64,000 nucleotides of DNA, from assembly GCA_016176335.1 (NCBI GenBank), contig JACOXI010000003.1, forward strand, positions 194,477 to 258,476. The letters are read 5' to 3'. The stretch's first letter is position 1. The number at the start of each line of letters is the position of its first letter. The DNA comes from Candidatus Daviesbacteria bacterium. GTDB taxonomy: Bacteria > Patescibacteriota > Microgenomatia > Daviesbacterales > UBA10151. The notes under the pieces were generated by a model that was given only the letters and a program-made list of their open reading frames with translations, made no database searches and was not told the DNA's origin. Position numbers and translations under genes: made by a program. Below are positions 2,278 to 56,528 of this stretch, one piece after another.

Positions 2278-4041
2278 TTGATGTATATCAGAAATTTTTG
2301 CATTATTGCTCATATAGATGCGGGAAAGTCAACACTGGCTGATAGGCTGTTGGAGATCACAGGAACTGTTCCTAAAGAAAAACTAAAACCCCAGTTGTTG
2401 GATAGTTTGGCTTTAGAGCGGGAGCGTGGTATTACAATTAAATTGGCTCCCGTGCGTTTACGATATACGATAAACGATACACAATATACTCTTAATTTAA
2501 TTGATACTCCCGGCCATGTTGATTTTTCTTATGAGGTATCGCGCGCTTTGGCTGCTGTGGAAGGGGCGATTTTGCTTGTTGATGCAACAGCGGGTATTCA
2601 GGCTCAAACTTTGGCACATGGTCTGGCTGCTTTGGATCAAAACCTGACTTTAATATCTGTAATAAACAAGGTTGATTTGTCTCATGCTGATGTCCAAAAA
2701 TCAACCAAAGCATTGACAGATACTTTTGGATTTTCAGAATCGGAAATATTACTCGTTTCCGGAAAAACCGGTCAGGGAGTGGATAAACTTTTACAAGCTA
2801 TCGTGGAAAGAATTCCTGCTCCCAAATCCGAGACAGACAAACCATTGAGAGCTTTAATCTTTGATTCGTTCTTTGATTCGTTTAAAGGTGTTATTGCCCA
2901 AGTGAGGATTGTTGAGGGGCAAACACCACCAGTAAACAGTAAAATATCCTTTTTGCGAACGCAGGCAGCAGGGCATATCCTGGAAACAGGATTTTTTGTG
3001 CCGCAGCTAACCGTTAACGAGGGATTAAAAAGCGGGGAAATAGGTTATATTGCCACCGGCATCAAAGAACCTGATCTGGTGCGGGTGGGAGATACCATCA
3101 GTTCCACATTTGAGGTGGAGCCCTTGCCAGGATATAAAGAGGTTAAACCTATGGTCTTTGTTGGACTTTTTCCCATAGATGCTGACAAATACTTTGAACT
3201 GAAAGATGCTCTTGCCAAGTTTAGATTAACGGATCCTGCTTTTTCATATATACCGGAGCAATCACAAGCTTTAGGTGCGGGATTTCGATGTGGATTTTTA
3301 GGACTGTTACATGCGGAAGTTGTTCAGGAAAGACTATCAGGAGAATTTAATGTTGATCTTATGGTAACAGTTCCTTCAGTTGAGTATCTTTTAAATAACC
3401 AGCCGATTACCTCTCCTTCGGAGTTGCCCCAGGGAGAAAACATAACCGATTTGAAAGAGCCATGGGTGAAATTGAGAATTTTTGTGCCCCAAAATTATAT
3501 TGGGTCTGTCATGGAGTTAATACAAGATAAAAGAGGCAGATTTTTAAACATGCAGCATTTCGGGCTTCAGGTGGAGATGTCCTATGAAATGCCGCTTTCT
3601 GAAATGGTGACTAATTTTTACGACAGATTAAAATCAGTTTCTTCTGGTTTTGCATCGTTGGATTGGGAGTTTTTGGAATTTCGGGAGGCGGATTGTGTAC
3701 GGGTTGATATTTTGGTGGGAGGAGAGAAGGTTGATGCGCTTTCCATGATCATAATTAAGGAAAAGGCAGAATCCGCCGGTCGGCTGATGGTGGAAAAATT
3801 AAAAGAGGTACTCCCCAGGCAAAATTTTGCAATAGCAATACAGGCAGCAATTGGTGGAACAATTATTGCCAGAGAAACGCTTTCTCCCTTTAGAAAAGAT
3901 GTCACAGCCAAATTATATGGTGGAGATAGAACCAGAAAAGATAAGCTGCTAGAGAAGCAGAAAAAAGGTAAAAAGAAGATGAAGATGGTAGGCCGTGTAG
4001 AAATTCCCCAAGAAGCATTTTTAAGTATTTTGAAAAGTTAA
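2278..4041 (+). CDS. lepA: translation elongation factor 4 (LepA)
   Basis: 587 aa; GTPase motifs [21 protein letters not shown]; LepA-specific C-terminal region. Confidence 0.95.
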   Translation: MMYIRNFCIIAHIDAGKSTLADRLLEITGTVPKEKLKPQLLDSLALERERGITIKLAPVRLRYTINDTQYTLNLIDTPGHVDFSYEVSRALAAVEGAILLVDATAGIQAQTLAHGLAALDQNLTLISVINKVDLSHADVQKSTKALTDTFGFSESEILLVSGKTGQGVDKLLQAIVERIPAPKSETDKPLRALIFDSFFDSFKGVIAQVRIVEGQTPPVNSKISFLRTQAAGHILETGFFVPQLTVNEGLKSGEIGYIATGIKEPDLVRVGDTISSTFEVEPLPGYKEVKPMVFVGLFPIDADKYFELKDALAKFRLTDPAFSYIPEQSQALGAGFRCGFLGLLHAEVVQERLSGEFNVDLMVTVPSVEYLLNNQPITSPSELPQGENITDLKEPWVKLRIFVPQNYIGSVMELIQDKRGRFLNMQHFGLQVEMSYEMPLSEMVTNFYDRLKSVSSGFASLDWEFLEFREADCVRVDILVGGEKVDALSMIIIKEKAESAGRLMVEKLKEVLPRQNFAIAIQAAIGGTIIARETLSPFRKDVTAKLYGGDRTRKDKLLEKQKKGKKKMKMVGRVEIPQEAFLSILKS

Positions 4042-4585: not shown

Positions 4586-4792
4586 TTAACGGTAAGTTTG
4601 GGTAGTGCGGCGTTCAATTCGTTGATGAATTTTTAGGTAAGTATTAATATCAAGTAGAGCTGCTTTTGGTTTACCATGTTGGGCTATGATAATCACGCCA
4701 TCTTTGGGTAGGTTTTTCAGGATATCTGATAATTTCCTCCTAAGTTCATCAGTGCCTATAAATTTTTTGTCTAGAATATTGCTTAATTGCAT
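4586..4792 (-). CDS. Phd/YefM-like antitoxin domain protein (orphan, no adjacent toxin)
   Basis: 68 aa; DELRRKLSDILKNLPKDGVIIIAQHGKPKAALLDINTY resembles Phd/YefM fold signature; no toxin ORF on the same strand nearby. Confidence 0.45.
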   Translation of the reverse strand: MQLSNILDKKFIGTDELRRKLSDILKNLPKDGVIIIAQHGKPKAALLDINTYLKIHQRIERRTTQTYR

Positions 4793-13540: not shown

Positions 13541-15496
13541 ATGGCTAAAATTGTGGGAATAGATTTAGGTACAACAAATTCAGCAGTGGCGGTGATGGAG
13601 GGTGGTAAACCCAAAGTCATCCATTCTGCTGAAGGGGAAAATATTATCCCATCAGTTGTTAATCCCACCAAAAATATTGTGGGTAGGGTGGCCAAACGCC
13701 AGGCTGTGGTTAATCCCAAAGAAACGATTTTTTCCATTAAAAGATTAATGGGTAGAAAATTCAAAGATGCCGAGGTTCAAAGAGATATTAAATGGCTTCC
13801 ATATGCTATTAAAGAAGGCAAAAATGGCATGGCTGTTGTGGAGGTGGAAGGTCATGAGTATACTCCACAAGAAATTTCTGCTCAAATTTTACAAAAAATT
13901 AAGACTGATGCAGAGAGTTATTTAGGAGAAAAAGTGACAGATGCAGTAATTACTGTTCCTGCATATTTTGATGATGCTCAAAGACAAGCCACCAAACAAG
14001 CTGGAGAAATAGCTGGGCTTAATGTGCAAAGAATTATCAATGAACCAACAGCTGCTGCGCTGGCTTACGGACTTGATAAATCTCACGCTCACACCATTGC
14101 TGTTTATGATCTGGGCGGCGGAACTTTTGATATCTCCATTTTGGAACTGGGGGATGGAGTAATTGAAGTGAAATCAACTAATGGCGACACACATTTGGGT
14201 GGAGATGATTTTGATCAGGTTATTTTAGATTATTTAGCAGAAGAATTTAAAAAAGAACAAGGCATTGATCTTAAAGGAGACAGACAAGCTTTGCAAAGAT
14301 TAAGAGATGCTGCTGAAAAAGCCAAAATTGAGCTTTCTTCCTCAATGGAGGCTGCAATTTCCATACCATTTGTGACTGCTGATTCATCAGGGCCTAAGCA
14401 TTTGGAGATGAAACTTTCCCGAGCCAAGCTGGAGGGATTGGTTAAATCTTTAATTGATAAATCCTTTAATGCAGTTAAGGCATGCCTTAAAGATGCAAAG
14501 CTTGAGCCAGGAAAAATTGATGAAGTGGTTTTGGTTGGTGGAATGACCAGGATGCCTGCAGTGCAGAAGGCTGTGCAGGAATATTTTGGCAAAGAGCCAC
14601 ACAAGGGTATTAATCCTGATGAGGTGGTGGCTGTGGGGGCAGCAATACAAGGTGGAGTTTTGGGTGGGGAAGTCAAAGATGTTTTGCTTTTGGATGTTAC
14701 ACCTTTGACTTTGGGAATTGAAACTTTGGGTGGAGTTAGAACGCCTCTTATTAACAGAAATACCACAATTCCCTCTTCCAAATCAGAAGTTTTCTCAACA
14801 GCAGCTGATAACCAGCCTGCTGTGGAGATTAATGTGCTGCAGGGTGAGAGGGAAATGGCAGCTGACAACAAATCTTTGGGAAGATTTGTTTTAGATGGGA
14901 TTCCGCCTGCACCAAGAGGAGTTCCACAAATTGAAGTCACTTTTGATATTGATGCCAATGGTATTTTAAATGTGTCTGCCAAAGATAAAGCCACAGGCAA
15001 AGAGCAAAAAATAACCATCACAGGTTCAACAGGTTTGGATAAGGCAGAAGTGGAGAAAATGACCAAAGAAGCAGAAGCTCATGCAGAAGAGGATAAAAAG
15101 AAAAAAGAGGGAATTGAAGTAAGAAATATAGCAGATAGTTTAGTTTATCAAACAGAAAAAACCTTAAAAGAACAAGGGGATAAAGTGCCAGCTGATGTTA
15201 GAACAGAGGTGGAGCAAAAGTTAAATGAGCTTAAAGATGCATTAAAAGGAGATAATGTTGATGATATTAAGACCAAAGGTGATGCGCTGGGGGAAGTTTT
15301 GCAAAAAGTAGGTTCTGCAATGTACAAAGACCAGGGTACAGGTGACAGTGGACAGGGTACAGCAGGACAAACCGAGGAAGCTCCAAAAACAGAGGATTCG
15401 TCATCCGAAGCTCCAGCGAAGGATGAGGCTGTTGAAGGTGAAGTAGTGAGCGAAGCTTCTGCTGACGCAGTAGAAGAGGAGAAAAAATCGGAGTAA
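13541..15496 (+). CDS. dnaK: molecular chaperone DnaK (Hsp70)
   Basis: [16 protein letters not shown], full Hsp70 NBD+SBD; 651 aa. Confidence 0.97.
15332..15355. repeat. 24-nt in-frame repeat CAGGGTACAGGTGACAGTGGACAG (identical copy in infB at 21007-21030)
   Basis: 24/24 identity; encodes QGTGDSGQ in the DnaK C-terminal tail and in an IF2 G-domain insertion. Confidence 0.7.
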
Positions 15497-19450: not shown

Positions 19451-19479
19451 TTGACTTCAATTTGGTAAAAGAGTAATAT
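19451..19479 (+). promoter_or_regulatory. sigma70-like promoter upstream of nusA (TTGACT-17-TAATAT)
   Basis: Near-consensus hexamers with 17-nt spacing. Confidence 0.45.
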
Positions 19480-19506
19480 AATTGTGGTTAATAATCCAAA
19501 GGACCG

Positions 19507-19537
19507 AAAAGGTGGGCTAGTCCCACCTTTTATTTTA
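19507..19537 (+). terminator. intrinsic terminator/attenuator hairpin in nusA leader (AAAGGTGGG-CTAGT-CCCACCTTTTATTTT)
   Basis: 7-bp GC-rich stem plus U-tract about 30 nt downstream of the promoter and 80 nt upstream of nusA ATG. Confidence 0.55.
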
Positions 19538-19618
19538 GGTAACAGGGTACAGTGAGCAGGTTACATTAATCGCAAAAAAGCTGTTACCTGTAGCCTAAAA
19601 TCTGTAATATTTACTAAC

Positions 19619-20853: not shown

Positions 20854-22365
20854 ATGACAGAAGTAACACGTCCACCTATCGTGACAATTTTAGGCCATGT
20901 TGATCATGGTAAGACTACACTTTTGGATTTTATCCGCAAAACTAATGTAGCTTCTCGTGAACATGGTGGAATAACTCAACATATTGGAGCATATCAAATT
21001 AGTGCACAGGGTACAGGTGACAGTGGACAGAAAGACAAAAATTCACTGAAACCTGCAACCTCTAACCTAATAACCTTTATAGATACTCCAGGCCATGCGG
21101 CTTTTGAAAAAATGCGATCCAGAGGTGCCAAAGTTGCGGACATAGCAGTATTAGTTGTGGCGGCAGATGACGGGATAATGCCGCAAACAGATGAGGCTAT
21201 AAAACATATACAGGAGGCCAAAGTACCGATGATTGTGGCAGTAAACAAAATAGATATGAGTGGAATTGATGTTAAAGTTCAATTGGAAAAGATTAAAAAA
21301 CAATTATCCGACAGGAAAATTCTGGTTGAAGAATATGGTGGAGATACGCCGGTTGTGCCAATATCGGCAAAATCAGGTGAGGGTATTCCGAAGCTTTTGG
21401 AGATGATAACGCTGGTGTCAGAGCTAAACGACATAAAAGGTGATCCGCAAGAGGTTGCTTCCGGTGTTGTGATCGAGTCCAGTTTGGATAAGTTTAAAGG
21501 TCCGATTGCCACAATTTTGGTAAGAGATGGGACCTTGAGAAAAGGAGATCAAATCATGGTAGGGGGCAGTAAAGGTAAGGTAAGGGGAATGTTTGATTTT
21601 AACGGTAAGAGTTTGGAGGCTGCTGGTCCTTCAACTCCTGTTGAGGTTTTAGGTTTGGAGGGTGTGCCTGCTGTGGGGGGACTTTTAGGCAAAGAGTCAC
21701 CCTCCAAAGCTTTAGCGGAGGCGGACAAAGAGGTGAAGTCTTTGGTGGATAAATTAAGGCAGGGTGCCCCTAAAACATTAAAACTTGTTATCAAAGCAGA
21801 TAAACAAGGATCTTTGGAGGCAATTCAATCCTCTTTGGAAAAGTTTAATGAGGAAGGGGAAGTGGTGAATTTTATATTTTCCGGCACAGGCGATATTGGG
21901 GAGGAGAATATTAAGTTGGCAGCAGCTGTAGGAGCAATAGTTTTAGGGTTTAATGTAAAAATTGCCCCAAATGCGCAGAAATTAGCAGAGGCGGAGAAGG
22001 TTTTGATAAGAACCTACAATATTATCTATGAATTGATTGAGGAAATGGAAGAGGTGGTGGAAGCTCTCCTGAAGGTTGGTCAGGTGGAGGAAGTTTTTGG
22101 CAGGGCAAACATTATTGCGGAATTCCCCTTTGGCAAAGGGGAAAGAATTGCAGGATGCAGAATAATAGAGGGGGAGATAGCAAAAGGGCGTAAAATTAGG
22201 ATTGTCAGAGAAAGTGCAGTGATTGGTGAGACTAAACTGAAGTCTTTAAGAAAAGTTAAAGAAGAAGTGCAAAAGGCGGAAAAAGGAAATGATTGCGGCA
22301 TGCTGTTTGATCCGCCTGTTAATTTTCAAGTGAGTGATGTTGTGGAATCATTCAGAGTGATATAG
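20854..22365 (+). CDS. infB: translation initiation factor IF-2 (short form, 503 aa)
   Basis: [22 protein letters not shown]-domain motifs plus IF2 domain II/C-terminal; the long N-terminal region seen in E. coli-type IF2 (~890 aa) is absent. Confidence 0.95.
21007..21030. repeat. infB copy of the 24-nt QGTGDSGQ-coding repeat (see 15332-15355)
   Basis: 24/24 identical to the dnaK copy; lies within a roughly 22-aa insertion between G2 and G3 of IF2. Confidence 0.7.
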
Positions 22366-23826: not shown

Positions 23827-23903
23827 GAACCGTTTATGTTATAATGGTTGTGTAAGAGAGATTTGGGGATTGCAAAGAGAGAATTAGTTTATCGTTAATT
23901 GTA

Positions 23904-23937
23904 TATCGTTTATCGTCATTCAAAACGATACACGATA
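23904..23937 (+). promoter_or_regulatory. rpsO-pnp intergenic stem-loop (TATCGTTTATCGT / ACGATACACGATA, 8-nt loop)
   Basis: 13-bp imperfect inverted repeat with additional TATCGT-type repeats on both sides, about 70 nt upstream of pnp. Confidence 0.45.
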
Positions 23938-27449: not shown

Positions 27450-27540
27450 ATTAACCTAATTGACCTAATTTCTAATTGATCTAAATAATGATTAAATGTC
27501 TTAAGTACCAATTAGAACATTTTGTCATTAAGATTTGTTT

Positions 27541-27575
27541 AGAAATTAGAAATTAGAAATTAGAAATTAGAAATT
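27541..27575. repeat. perfect tandem heptamer repeat (AGAAATT)x5 ending 6 nt before the RNase J start codon
   Basis: Read directly: agaaatt x5 then tttaatATG. Confidence 0.85.
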
Positions 27576-27581
27576 TTTAAT

Positions 27582-29273
27582 ATGAAGTCTTTTGCACCAA
27601 AACTTACATTAAACCAGAAAGGACAATCATTAAAAGTAATTCCCTTAGGTGGAGTTGGTGATGTGACCAAAAACATGTATGTATACGAATATGGGAATGA
27701 CATTATTATTGTGGATTGTGGGGTAGGATTTCCGGATGAAGGCATGCCGGGGGTTGATTTGGTTATTCCGGATATCTCATATTTGAGAGATAAAAAAGAC
27801 AAAATTAGGGGAATCCTTATCACTCACGGACACGAGGATCACATTGGGAGTCTTCCATATATTTGGCCCGCTTTACAGGCTCCAATTTATACTCAAAGAT
27901 TAACTGCGGGATTTATTAGGAGTAAATTTATAGAGCATGATTTACCGAGAAACAAGATTGTCGAGATGAAGATTGATCAAAAATTAGACCTTGGATCGTT
28001 TAAGATTTCTTTTTATCAGGTGTCACATTCAGTACCTGATTCTACCGGGATTGTCATAGAGACCCCGGTTGGCAGGATTATTCATCAGGCAGATTTTAAA
28101 ATTGATTGGACTCCTGTTTCAGGACAAGTGACAGATGTGGGAGAGGTGGCCAGATTGGGTAGCGCGGGGGTATTGTTTCTTTTGATTGATTGTTTAAGAG
28201 TAGATAAACCGGGTTTTAATAAATCGGAAAAATCAATAGAGGATACTTTCGAGAAAGCAGCAGTTGATACATCGGGCAAACTGCTTCTGACAATGACATC
28301 ATCAAATGTTTCCAGAATGCAGCAGGCGATTAATGTCGCTCAAAGAGTTGGCAGGAAGGTGGCTGTTTTGGGGCGCTCTTTTGAAAAGAATTTTCAGGTT
28401 GCCAGAGATTTGGGATATTTGCATGTTCCGCCGGGAATTATCATTGCGCCGGATGAAATAAATTCTTTCGCAGCAGGGAAAGTTTTGGTTTTAATTGCAG
28501 GATCTCAAGGTCAATCCGGCTCATCATTATCTCGTGCTGCCAATGAAGAACACAAGCAAATAAAACTTAAGGAAGGTGATAGCGTGGTGTTTTCTGCAGA
28601 CCCTATTCCTTCCACAGAATCTGCCCAAAATGCTTTAATAGATTCAATCGTGAGACTTGGGGTAACTGTCCATTACTCTGCTGTTCTCTCGGATTTACAT
28701 GTTTCAGGTCATGCTGCACTGGAGGAGTTAAGGTTAATGGTCAATCTTATCAAACCAAAGTTTATTTTGCCTATTGGCGGGACATTTAGGCATATGAGAA
28801 GTTTTTCTAAGATGGCACAAGAAATGGGTTATCAGAAAAATCAAATTATTGATGCAGAGGATGGGGACATATTGAATATATCAAGGGAGACCGTCAAGCT
28901 TGATGGCAGGGTTGATGTACAAAATGTTTATGTTGATGGGTTAGGGATTGGGGATATTGGACATATAGTTTTAAGAGACAGACAAAAAATGAGCGAGGAA
29001 GGGGTGGTTGTTGTTGTTGTATCTTTGGATAGACATACAGGTAAGCTTACTGGCGATCCTGACATAATTTCCCGGGGATTTGTGTTTGAGGAATTTGCAC
29101 AGGATCTTTTGGATGAGGCCAAAAGAGTGCTTTCGGATAATTTGGCACAACATATTCATAAAAATACAGACTGGCGTTTTGTCAGAAAATTGGTTGAAGA
29201 TAGTTTGGAAAAATTCTTCTATGATGCAACAGGAAGGAGACCGCTGGTTCTGCCCACAGTTGTAGAGATATGA
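27582..29273 (+). CDS. rnj: ribonuclease J (beta-CASP metallo-beta-lactamase RNase)
   Basis: VIPLGGVGDV...ITHGHEDHIG motif II, beta-CASP and C-terminal domain; 563 aa. Confidence 0.9.
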   Translation: MKSFAPKLTLNQKGQSLKVIPLGGVGDVTKNMYVYEYGNDIIIVDCGVGFPDEGMPGVDLVIPDISYLRDKKDKIRGILITHGHEDHIGSLPYIWPALQAPIYTQRLTAGFIRSKFIEHDLPRNKIVEMKIDQKLDLGSFKISFYQVSHSVPDSTGIVIETPVGRIIHQADFKIDWTPVSGQVTDVGEVARLGSAGVLFLLIDCLRVDKPGFNKSEKSIEDTFEKAAVDTSGKLLLTMTSSNVSRMQQAINVAQRVGRKVAVLGRSFEKNFQVARDLGYLHVPPGIIIAPDEINSFAAGKVLVLIAGSQGQSGSSLSRAANEEHKQIKLKEGDSVVFSADPIPSTESAQNALIDSIVRLGVTVHYSAVLSDLHVSGHAALEELRLMVNLIKPKFILPIGGTFRHMRSFSKMAQEMGYQKNQIIDAEDGDILNISRETVKLDGRVDVQNVYVDGLGIGDIGHIVLRDRQKMSEEGVVVVVVSLDRHTGKLTGDPDIISRGFVFEEFAQDLLDEAKRVLSDNLAQHIHKNTDWRFVRKLVEDSLEKFFYDATGRRPLVLPTVVEI

Positions 29274-38155: not shown

Positions 38156-39112
38156 ATGAAAAAAATAATTGGATCAGCTGTTTTGGTTATCTTGGCAGTA
38201 TTTTTAATTCGTGGTTTTTGGGATAGTCAACTTACTCCCGTGTCATCGGAGAAAGAGACTAAATCTTTTGTAATTACAAAGGGTGGGAGTTTTTCGGAAG
38301 TTTCCAAGAAATTATCGGATGAAGGTTTGATTAAGTCTTCATTTTTCTTTACTTTTTTTGCTAAACAATCAGGTCTTTCGGATAAAATCCAGTCCGGTAC
38401 TTTTAAATTATCTCCCTCAATGTCTGCAGAGGAAATCTTAAAAACAATCACAGGTAATCCTGTAGACGATTGGGTGACCTTGCTTGAAGGATGGAGAATT
38501 GAGGAAATGGCAGAGAAACTCAATTCAGAATTCAGAATTCAGAATTCAGAATTTTTGAAAATTGCCAAGGAAGGATATATGTTTCCTGATACCTATTTGT
38601 TCCCAAAAGATTATTCGGCGGAGCAGATTGCAAAAATTATGATGGATAATTTTGAGAAAAAATATACAGAAGCGCTGCGGACAAAAATTAAGTCTTTGGG
38701 ACTATCTGAAGATCAAGGAGTCATATTGGCATCAATAGTGGAAAGAGAAGCGAGGTCGTATGAGGCAAGAAGGATGGTTGCAAGTATTCTTTTAAAAAGA
38801 CTAAAAATTGGTATGGGGCTTAATGCCGATGCAACAGTACAATATGCCACAGGTTACCAGCCCCAAGAAAAAAGCTGGTGGAAAAGACATTTAACAAAAG
38901 AAGATTTAAGGGTGGAATCACATTACAATACTTATATTTATTCCGGTTTACCGCCGACACCTATTGCAAACCCGTCTTTATCATCTCTTCAGGCAGTTGC
39001 GGATGCAGATTTGTCAATACCGTATCTTTATTATTATCACGATTCAAAAGGCAATTCATATTATGCTAAAACCTTGGATGAACACAACCAAAATATTGCA
39101 AATAACCCCTGA
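38156..39112 (+). CDS. mltG: endolytic murein transglycosylase MltG (YceG-like)
   Basis: N-terminal TM, YceG domain; conserved alaS-ruvX-mltG neighbourhood. Confidence 0.85.
   Translation: MKKIIGSAVLVILAVFLIRGFWDSQLTPVSSEKETKSFVITKGGSFSEVSKKLSDEGLIKSSFFFTFFAKQSGLSDKIQSGTFKLSPSMSAEEILKTITGNPVDDWVTLLEGWRIEEMAEKLNSEFRIQNSEFLKIAKEGYMFPDTYLFPKDYSAEQIAKIMMDNFEKKYTEALRTKIKSLGLSEDQGVILASIVEREARSYEARRMVASILLKRLKIGMGLNADATVQYATGYQPQEKSWWKRHLTKEDLRVESHYNTYIYSGLPPTPIANPSLSSLQAVADADLSIPYLYYYHDSKGNSYYAKTLDEHNQNIANNP
38522..38549. repeat. tandem heptamer repeat (AATTCAG)x4 inside the mltG coding region
   Basis: Read directly; encodes NSEFRIQNSEF. The unit is not a multiple of 3, so a copy-number change would frameshift mltG. 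Confidence 0.85.
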
Positions 39113-49160: not shown

Positions 49161-49382
49161 ATGGAGAAAAAGTTGAGGAAAGAAAAATTGAAGATGTGGA
49201 GAGAAAACCTCCAAAAATTAGAGGAGCAACTTGCTGCTGTGCAGCTTAAAAAAGGTGCTGCTGCGCAAGAGGGAGATCTGTCCGAAAATGCAGCCTACAT
49301 TATGGCAATTGAGGATGCCGAGACCTTGCGGGTACAAATTGAACAGGTGAAAAAAATAATTCAAGAATTGGAGGAAGGGTAA
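49161..49382 (+). CDS. GreA/GreB N-terminal coiled-coil domain-only protein (73 aa)
   Basis: LQKLEEQLAAV...GDLSENAAYIMAIEDAETLRVQIEQVKKII matches the Gre N-terminal coiled-coil (GDLxENAEY signature); no C-terminal FKBP-like domain encoded. Confidence 0.55.
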   Translation: MEKKLRKEKLKMWRENLQKLEEQLAAVQLKKGAAAQEGDLSENAAYIMAIEDAETLRVQIEQVKKIIQELEEG

Positions 49383-49453
49383 AGGGGGAAGCGGAAAGGG
49401 GAAAGTACATATATAACTTTACCCTTCACCCTTGACGCTTTACGCTAAAAACT

Positions 49454-55742: not shown

Positions 55743-56528
55743 ATGATTAACAGTTTATTAGGAATTAAGAAAAATATGACATCAACTTATGACTCTCGGG
55801 GAAGAAGGGTGGGGGCGACTGTGGTGGAGATCCAGCCTAATTTAGTGACTCAAATTAAGGCAACTGACGGAAAAGATGGATATGATGCAGTGCAACTGGG
55901 AATAGGAAGCAAAAAGTCAGTTAAAAAGCCCCAGCTTGGACACGGTAAAAAGGTGGGAATAGAGAAACCGATCCGCTGGTTTAGGGAAATTAGAATTATG
56001 AATCCCAAATCAAGCTTAGAAGATTTACAGCCTGGACAAGATATAAAACTTGACCAGGTTTTTTCAATCGGAGATGCGGTTAAAGTTAGCGGAACTTCCA
56101 AAGGTAAGGGATTTCAAGGTGGTGTCAGAAGGCACGGATTTCATGGTGGGCCAAAGACTCATGGTCAATCTGACAGGCATCGTGCCCCGGGAGCTATTGG
56201 TTCAGGCACCACGCCGGGAAGAGTTTATAAAGGCAAAAGAATGGCAGGACATATGGGTAATACCCAAGCCAGTATTAAGAATTTGGAGATAGTTGGTTTG
56301 GATAAAGAGAAGAATTTATTGATGGTAAAAGGCGGGATACCAGGTCCAACAGGAAGACTTGTAAAGATTACAAAGTTAGGAAGAATCAAAGGTTACACTC
56401 CACCACCGGAGGAAAAGGTGGAGGAGAGTGAAGAGGGTAAAGGGGAAAGCGTTAAGGGTGAAGAAAAGACAGAAAGTCAACCAACTGAAGAAGCACCAAA
56501 AGAAGGAGAAGAAAATGCCAAAAGTTAA
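55743..56528 (+). CDS. rplC: 50S ribosomal protein L3 (with Glu/Lys-rich C-terminal extension)
   Basis: L3 family conservation; acidic/basic C-terminal tail. Confidence 0.95.
   Translation: MINSLLGIKKNMTSTYDSRGRRVGATVVEIQPNLVTQIKATDGKDGYDAVQLGIGSKKSVKKPQLGHGKKVGIEKPIRWFREIRIMNPKSSLEDLQPGQDIKLDQVFSIGDAVKVSGTSKGKGFQGGVRRHGFHGGPKTHGQSDRHRAPGAIGSGTTPGRVYKGKRMAGHMGNTQASIKNLEIVGLDKEKNLLMVKGGIPGPTGRLVKITKLGRIKGYTPPPEEKVEESEEGKGESVKGEEKTESQPTEEAPKEGEENAKS

Follow-up and report, generated by a model that had tools for sequence, protein, structure and literature searches.

Several described systems of small bacterial repeats bear on a 24-nt block, CAGGGTACAGGTGACAGTGGACAG, that occurs in frame in both dnaK and infB of a Candidatus Daviesbacteria genome, within a 64-kb stretch of contig JACOXI010000003.1 referred to here as the window. 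The uptake signal sequences (USS/DUS) of Pasteurellaceae and Neisseriaceae are found about once per kb, inside coding regions and as inverted pairs between genes, and come in lineage dialects. Miniature transposable elements of the inverted-repeat type (MITEs), ERIC and Correia among them, have terminal inverted repeats, target-site duplications and a parent insertion sequence (IS). In cyanobacteria, Elhai and colleagues (Genome Res 18:1484, cited in PMC5861425 and PMC3116915) are said to have described in 2008 heptamer tandem repeats (STRR) and 21–27-nt small dispersed repeats (SDR), with nesting and with hairpins carrying compensatory changes; the SDR are reportedly confined to Nostocaceae, where they form the sequence families SDR1–8. 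MITEs can also lie inside genes, as do the QMITEs of Coxiella (PMC5896051), and the REP and REPIN sequences are abundant, extragenic repeats that bear a GTAG or CGTC tag and are associated with a RAYT gene (PMC3116915; PMC3733652). Palindromes located in frame in many unrelated housekeeping genes, and also outside genes, are known as Rickettsia palindromic elements (RPE; Ogata et al. 2000 via PMC10969869); they are ~100–150 bp long (30–50 aa), number dozens per genome, are confined to Rickettsia and have no 7-nt periodicity. The Daviesbacteria block resembles each of these systems in some respects. In our assessment it is probably a near-consensus member of a small dispersed family of heptamer and palindromic repeats that survives in permissive protein segments.

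Results of a search of the window show that the 24-mer is exact at 15332–15355 and 21007–21030, both on the + strand, with no further copy at three or fewer mismatches. A chance match is ruled out by 100 dinucleotide-preserving shuffles of the window, none of which contained the 24-mer, and by our estimate that 64 kb should hold only ~7e-6 pairs of identical 24-mers. The block is the longest exact dispersed repeat of the window outside homology (a conserved GTPase motif) and tandem arrays. Consistent with an earlier note made from the letters of this DNA, both copies begin at codon position 1 and are translated as QGTGDSGQ. Identity ends sharply at 24 nt (flanks AAAGAC and GGTACA in dnaK, AGTGCA and AAAGAC in infB) and the two genes share no other common block of 12 nt or longer, which excludes the longer duplicated region that the note had named as a possible source. 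The second source that it had named, an assembly artefact, is excluded by independent assemblies from different studies, which hold the block at the same sites.

The description of the block as a 24-nt mini-insertion does not hold, however, as it is part of a degenerate heptamer array (CAGGGTA CAGGTGA CAGTGGA CAG; period 7 in Tandem Repeats Finder, TRF) and, in infB, one arm of a hairpin. The heptamer units are not perfect but vary (GGT/GTG/TGG) around a family unit ACAGGKN. When the 64 kb are scanned position-specifically for ACAGKKN units, exactly three arrays emerge, compared with none in shuffles: those of dnaK and infB, each scoring at 22 of 22 informative positions, and an intergenic one at 19535–19566 in the nusA leader (Table 1). 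The dnaK array has no inverted partner and folds no better than shuffles (z +0.3). The infB hairpin, of ~53 nt, is imperfect (−17.9 kcal/mol, z −2.05) in the window genome, hereafter W, and its stem is stronger in relatives, whose DNA loci are numbered L### and protein homologues P#### (−26.4 kcal/mol, z −4.5, in L001). The nusA-leader hairpin reaches −26.2 kcal/mol (z −4.7), with none of 200 shuffles equally stable. Members of the family thus come in two forms: hairpins of ~53–70 nt with arms of 20–30 nt (infB, nusA leader, L007, L015, L023, L034) and solo arrays (dnaK, PolA, GatB and others), most coding copies being solo arrays of 21–35 nt. Neither the window hairpins nor nine related loci gave an Rfam match.

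Table 1. Coordinates of the heptamer elements and their host genes in the window
Feature	Position	Strand	Basis
dnaK, 651 aa, host of copy 1	13541..15496	+	translation; matches P0121, a Candidatus Daviesbacteria DnaK, at 100%
Solo heptamer array in the DnaK C-terminal tail, CAGGGTA CAGGTGA CAGTGGA CAGGGTA CAG, including the 24-mer	15331..15362	+	scan 22/22; TRF period 7 at 15332-15362
Non-coding heptamer hairpin of the nusA leader, GGTAACAGGGTACAGTGAGCAGGTTACA / loop / CTGTTACCTGTAGCCTAAAA	19533..19600	+	fold, scan, relatives' leaders
infB, short 503-aa IF2, host of copy 2	20854..22365	+	translation; 100% match to Candidatus Daviesbacteria IF-2 P0001
69-nt segment replacing the 18-nt VEHDGK loop at the β2–β3 hairpin tip of the G domain	20998..21066	+	DNA alignment with L047, L048
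5′ arm of the infB hairpin, heptamer array with the 24-mer (21007-21030)	20999..21030	+	scan; pairs with 21042-21061
Inverted heptamers forming the 3′ arm of the infB hairpin, TTCACTGAAAC CTGCAAC CTCTAAC CT, read SLKPATSNL	21042..21068	+	fold

Copies of the same nucleotides occur in many unrelated genes and genomes of candidate phyla radiation (CPR) bacteria. Exact scans for a 19–21-nt core returned 20 loci from GTDB genomes, 24 loci from JGI metagenomes and none from IMG/VR, on which ground a phage origin was rejected. About 35 matches to a random 19-mer with one degenerate position are expected in 596 Gb by our estimate, and it is therefore the distribution of the matches, rather than their raw number, that constitutes the evidence. 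Some 13 of the 20 GTDB loci belong to CPR genomes of ~40% GC, with the core inside open reading frames (ORFs), and the host genomes include Daviesbacteria, Microgenomates and Saccharibacteria. Besides IF2 and DnaK, the core is hosted by a linker of DNA polymerase I (PolA), by ArgRS, GatB, YchF, trigger factor, a dihydroorotate-dehydrogenase-like protein, the tails of S16 and L3, a LolA-like protein and giant surface proteins; at least 13 unrelated protein families share the same nucleotide core in frame. The coding copies are almost always read in one frame, which gives the hydrophilic peptide (V/G)TGDSGQ in 12 of the 13 coding host families; TsaD reads LQVTVD, and the third forward frame of the array contains TGA. 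The exact 24-mer itself is present at seven other loci in five contexts, namely infB (L002, L030, L032), dnaK (L022), GatB, the LolA-like gene and one signal-peptide hairpin. At L023 (~560–680) and L034 (~735–860), hairpins that seem non-coding supply, when read on the opposite strand, secreted proteins with their N-terminal signal or membrane segment, and the palindromic element can therefore be translated in both orientations.

The wider phenomenon proposed in the note, short in-frame blocks in housekeeping genes, is supported. Its further suggestion that highly expressed essential genes are targeted finds no such support, as copies are also found in giant surface proteins, in opposite-strand signal peptides and in non-coding leaders. 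The coding copies all occupy disordered loops, linkers or tails, which is what survival at sites tolerant of insertion, and not targeting, would give.

A larger form of the repeat is also shared between unrelated genes: a 61-nt composite of array and nested 30-nt palindrome (GCCTTCGGCTCTGAGGYTCAGGCTCGAAGA) is 57/61 identical between a Microgenomates PolA and a Daviesbacteria YchF. The palindrome (AFGSEAQARR) is nested in phase in the arrays of both genes (L004 ~3470–3530 and L021 ~4655–4720), and taking it out restores perfect 7-nt phasing. GACAGTG...ACAAAAAAT bears some likeness to the recombination signals of V(D)J, which was dismissed as coincidence.

The insertion that the note had placed between the G2 and G3 regions of the IF2 GTPase domain is real as an extra segment (between GITQ and DTPGH), but its size has to be restated. 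Canonical IF2s, which were said to run straight from GAYQV to ITF, have a short loop of ~6 residues there, and the 23 residues of W replace the six (VEHDGK) found in its nearest relatives and in most Daviesbacteria, a net gain of 17 aa. An alignment with Thermus IF2 (4B44) also shows 17 extra W residues, between GAYQ and ITFIDTPGH. Mapping on a structure, as the note had proposed, was carried out for the IF2 site on an AlphaFold (AF2) model of mean predicted local distance difference test (pLDDT) score 74. The insert is placed there between strands 45–50 and 72–77, at the tip of the G-domain β2–β3 hairpin, and residues 53–69 have pLDDT values below 50 and no secondary structure, so that it is modelled as a disordered coil. 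A disordered insert of 23 residues (17 aa net) that holds no domain rules out the remnant of an intein or homing endonuclease.

Close relatives differ in having or lacking a copy. The infB genes of L047 and L048 are ~92–95% identical to that of W at the nucleotide level, yet carry GTAGAACACGACGGTAAG (VEHDGK) exactly at the position of the 69-nt element, the flanks of which otherwise show the same similarity as the remainder of the gene. The two states differ by replacement of one segment with another rather than by plain insertion, and the infB junction shows no target-site duplication. In the 30 nt adjoining the element there are six differences, against a background of ~5–6%, a weak hint at what might be a short conversion tract. 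Because the loop and 3′ arm of W match other infB alleles, the presence or absence of the element among close relatives would be best explained by short-patch allelic replacement between lineages. Carriage is polymorphic among Daviesbacteria at both coding sites (~24 of 120 IF2s and 21 of 120 DnaKs). About 77 of the 120 IF2s have the short loop (typically VEHDGKL), the ~24 carriers have the heptamer-hairpin insert, and the remainder show at least three other, unrelated types of insert in the same loop. A neighbour-joining (NJ) tree of the 120 IF2s mixes carriers with non-carriers; being star-like, it was dropped as proof of multiple gains, and only the comparison of W with L047 and L048 is used here.

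One of the unrelated inserts of the IF2 loop, EIPEESKSRESEANRGILRQAQDDLAENRK, is found in P0028, P0030, P0044, P0051, P0069, P0073, P0089 and P0098, and its DNA (L022, 3503–3635) consists of three small palindromes in series: GATTCCGCAGGAATC, TCCCGAG..CTCGGGA and TTTTGCGGTAAGCCGCAAAA. Two more insert types of this loop are EVQSEKGKVQSGLSTQHSSL and EISDKGQAISKENKNHITSHVSR.

In DnaK, G[TA]GDSGQ directly follows the conserved AMYxxx in the 21 carriers, and others show decayed versions of it; the dnaK tail of L002 also has the block, at 22 of 24 positions. The closest DnaKs, of 90–91% amino-acid identity, include both carriers and non-carriers. The tails of Daviesbacteria DnaKs are mosaics of recurring short blocks, among them DPSTSSGQG (P0126, P0131, P0143 and others), and the W tail holds one such block of 12 residues at 15392–15430, the DNA of which is partly palindromic. 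In the NusA C-terminal tail of L002 (9667–9698) a heptamer array is read in the other frame, as QVTVDSKQ, and a DPSASSGRE block comes next. Small GIY-YIG ORFs of 76 and 98 aa lie directly downstream of infB in L001 (11551–11781) and of dnaK in L002 (4715–5011), respectively.

The third member of the family in the window stands in a nusA leader that is conserved in five genomes and consists of a promoter-like site, an invariant hairpin, a short spacer and the ATG. The heptamer hairpin, of ~70 nt, is present in W only and absent from the conserved leaders of the four relatives; it sits between the conserved leader hairpin (19507–19531) and the nusA ATG (19619), with no target-site duplication evident at its junction. 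The conserved part (19451–19531 of the window; ~8520–8600 of L001; also L002, L049 and L051) comprises a promoter-like TTGACT-17-TAATAT, then a hairpin with a T-run, AAGGTGGGCTAGTCCCACCTTTT, which in Daviesbacteria stands invariant 15–25 nt before the nusA ATG and, judged from its sequence, looks like an attenuator or the terminator of a small RNA. The heptamer hairpin of W parts it from the ATG and displaces the GGAG-like Shine–Dalgarno (SD) sequence of the relatives.

The conservation of the element at the nucleotide level goes well beyond that of its coding context. In the infB genes of W, L001, L002, L018 and L030 the flanks are 0.71–0.85 identical (0.40–0.70 at third codon positions) and the arms of the element 0.83–0.97. 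L018, L030 and most dnaK loci were found by exact core match, whereas that bias does not touch L001 and L002, the 3′ arms or the loops: L001 and L002 were found by protein similarity and have nearly the same nucleotides in the infB insert, although the proteins are only ~75% identical. The stem is maintained where the heptamer itself has changed. In L049 and L050 infB carries the dialect ACAGGCA and keeps the hairpin (z −4.0 and −4.4) through UA-to-CG double changes, and at the same site L052 has a third dialect, AAAGTGC/GCACT. When eight infB elements are aligned, 84% of the cells are paired, compared with 28–43% in slid controls, and five stem pairs have changed on both sides, compared with 1.5 ± 1.0 in shuffles, of which 1 in 500 reached the observed value. 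The dnaK and infB copies share a dialect in W, L002 and L050, the L050 pair having a 17-mer, CAGGCAACAGGCAACAG, in common. However, L052 and L021, which belong to one assembly, hold three dialects, and those of dnaK and infB differ in L052; genome-wide concordance of dialects, or strict concerted evolution, was accordingly dropped to a weak observation.

How a repeat family of this kind might have arisen and persisted can be outlined as follows. It would spread, or would have spread, by copy-and-paste or by patch replacement, in the manner of a non-autonomous selfish repeat, and selection would then retain only those copies that are free of stops, in frame and structurally harmless. The identity of dnaK and infB would reflect the proximity of both to the family consensus and not recent copying of one from the other, although occasional homogenization of the two within a genome may occur. 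Other genomes hold the exact 24-mer at both orthologous sites, which makes a private conversion event needless, and neither copy arose newly in this genome.

Several observations weigh against a dispersed repeat family of this nature. Its copy number is low, with three arrays in 64 kb that all lie within 6 kb, none in ~140 kb of other Daviesbacteria sequence that had not been selected by pattern, and one or two exact copies per genome, whereas tens to hundreds are usual in active MITE or REP families. No target-site duplication, terminal signature or associated transposase was found at the loci examined, and the only IS near infB, that of L051, ends in unrelated 14-nt terminal repeats. Orthologous copies are kept across deeply diverged genomes, which is unexpected for a neutral relic and points to selection or homogenization. 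The identity of the core is by construction in the many loci that were retrieved by exact core match, and the NJ tree that mixes carriers and non-carriers is poorly resolved. Moreover, template-switch correction of quasi-palindromes could mimic the covariation of the stem, and selection for structure therefore falls short of proof.

Of the other explanations, the one that survives best is that the element is a functional cis-acting nucleic-acid signal kept by selection, its coding being incidental, for instance an mRNA hairpin that tunes how the dnaK or nusA–infB transcripts are translated or how stable they are, a site bound by a protein or small RNA, or a DNA-uptake-type signal. We regard this as unlikely. 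Stem covariation and the retention of a hairpin at the same infB site by each of the dialects ACAGGTG, ACAGGCA and AAAGTGC would be expected of such a signal, but many carriers, dnaK included (z +0.3), are solo arrays without a hairpin, and no Rfam family is matched. The dialect common to dnaK and infB in W, L002 and L050 is offset by the mixture of dialects in one genome (L052, L021). While the three window copies all belong to the hrcA-grpE-dnaK-dnaJ/nusA-infB neighbourhood and the nusA-leader copy displaces the usual SD region, the host genes at large are functionally unrelated. Nucleotide conservation far above that of flanking synonymous sites again suggests a signal, yet most Daviesbacteria are without the element at both sites and very close relatives manage without it, which makes it dispensable. 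A low copy number would also suit a dedicated signal, although the density is ~100-fold too low for one of the uptake type. It is the combination of low copy number and deep conservation that keeps a functional role alive.

Recent gene conversion or template switching within the genome, by which the 24 nt would have been copied between infB and dnaK over 5.7 kb, is less probable still, and we give it little credence. Such an event would leave exact identity at 24 of 24 positions within a single genome, cut off abruptly at either border, and the 17-mer of a different dialect shared by the L050 genes is what homogenization within a genome would give; but the dialects of dnaK and infB differ in L052, the block is widespread among relatives at each site, and the same 24-mer stands at orthologous dnaK (L022) and infB (L002, L030, L032) as well as in GatB, the LolA-like gene and the signal-peptide hairpin. 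Convergent selection on the protein for a flexible Gly/Thr/Ser/Asp/Gln linker, or an assembly chimera, is very improbable indeed: although both sites are disordered or low-complexity segments, identical synonymous codons recur across genes and genomes, non-coding and opposite-strand copies exist and independent assemblies from different studies hold the block at the same sites.

Compared with the systems described above, the dispersed heptamer family has its closest analogue in function in the RPE. Both place the same repeat in frame in several unrelated genes (at least 13 families here) and add a peptide at positions compatible with the fold, here a coil of pLDDT below 50 in IF2 and tails or linkers elsewhere. 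They differ in that the unit of the present family is of 21–70 nt, based on heptamers, low in copy number and found in CPR bacteria. The closest analogues in architecture are the STRR and SDR. A head-to-tail 7-nt period and an excess of heptamer arrays are common to the STRR and to the 64 kb sampled here, the dispersal of the 24-mer over five contexts and the palindromes nested in phase in arrays (L004, L021) recall the SDR, and hairpins backed by compensatory changes are a further likeness. However, the hosts are of another taxon, the sequences would differ from SDR1–8, the STRR and SDR are mainly intergenic and high in copy number, and fixed-frame residence in essential genes is a feature of the present family and not a hallmark of theirs.

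The likeness to REP and REPIN sequences lies in the occurrence of solos and inverted hairpin doublets, in family-specific variants and in the lack of a target-site duplication; here, however, the copies are mostly intragenic, at 3 per 64 kb and 0 in ~140 kb of unselected sequence, and no REP tag or RAYT (Y1 transposase) was seen in the loci examined. With MITEs the family shares the character of a small, non-autonomous inverted-repeat DNA able to make in-frame fusions, but there is no duplication at the infB or nusA-leader junctions, and derivation as a MITE from the IS next to infB in L051 was ruled out by the unrelated terminal repeats of that IS. As with USS/DUS, short nucleotide motifs are found in coding regions, in preferred frames and in tolerant segments, whereas the density here is ~1 per 20–100 kb and dialects are mixed in one genome.

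If the family is indeed a selfish repeat of this kind, the rare case of selfish DNA inside protein-coding genes would extend from Rickettsia to CPR bacteria, with much smaller units, and would be linked to the still unexplained heptamer repeats of cyanobacteria. It would also explain a part of the unusual loop insertions and low-complexity tails of CPR housekeeping proteins, and its presence or absence between strains ~5–8% apart in nucleotides would offer a marker with which to follow recombination and the dynamics of repeats in bacteria that are uncultured. That a translated insert is conserved in its nucleotides raises the question of what recognizes or homogenizes the sequence. A bolder proposal, which we put forward only tentatively, is that CPR bacteria carry an undescribed class of tiny heptamer-array hairpin elements. 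These may be actively copied into genes and leaders and kept near consensus by a dedicated trans-acting system (an enzyme or an RNA template co-evolving with the dialects), or may act as a shared mRNA regulatory hairpin linking chaperone and translation-factor operons; either way, the essential proteins of these reduced genomes would regularly gain new loops and tails from them.

Heptamer periodicity is not limited to the ACAGGKN family. Over the 64 kb, TRF reports 19 arrays of period 7, whereas 30 local shuffles give 1.5 on average and at most 5, a ~12-fold excess. Heptamer repeats thus seem to be a habit of this genome, as in heterocystous cyanobacteria; among the papers searched, none mentions heptanucleotide repeats in Patescibacteria. 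A second heptamer hairpin, of a different unit (GRAAGGG / CTTNACC), is located at ~49376–49447 (−26.7 kcal/mol, z −4.5), and a 25/30-nt look-alike of it is present in the C-terminal tail of L3 at 56434–56463 (EEGKGESVKGEE), the site at which the L3 of another genome has an ACAGGKN block. The arms of this hairpin are GGAAGGG TAAAGGG GGAAGCG GAAAGGG on the 5′ side and CTTTACC CTTCACC CTTGACG CTTTACG on the 3′ side; it runs across the stop codon of a small ORF and terminates immediately ahead of the fusA ATG. A heptamer array in LepA (2459–2489) was considered as a further G-domain loop insertion and ruled out, the LepA loop being of canonical length.

Several other period-7 arrays lie immediately upstream of genes, such as (TTAGAAA)x5.3 at 27539–27575, upstream of the gene that begins at 27582. 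The array (AATTCAG)x4.6 at 38522–38553 is in frame within the ORF 38156–39112, and inverted heptamers of TATCG/CGATA stand between rpsO and pnp at 23887–23935. Outside CPR bacteria, related GGACAGT/GGGGACA arrays occur in high-GC Chloroflexi (L008, L010, L011, L016 and L042; GC 0.63–0.69), mostly 10–20 nt upstream of start codons that are on the opposite strand, so that the 5′ leaders read CTGTCCACTGTCCCCTGTA, and have no Rfam match. In one cyanobacterium-like contig the block adjoins GGGGACT heptamers.

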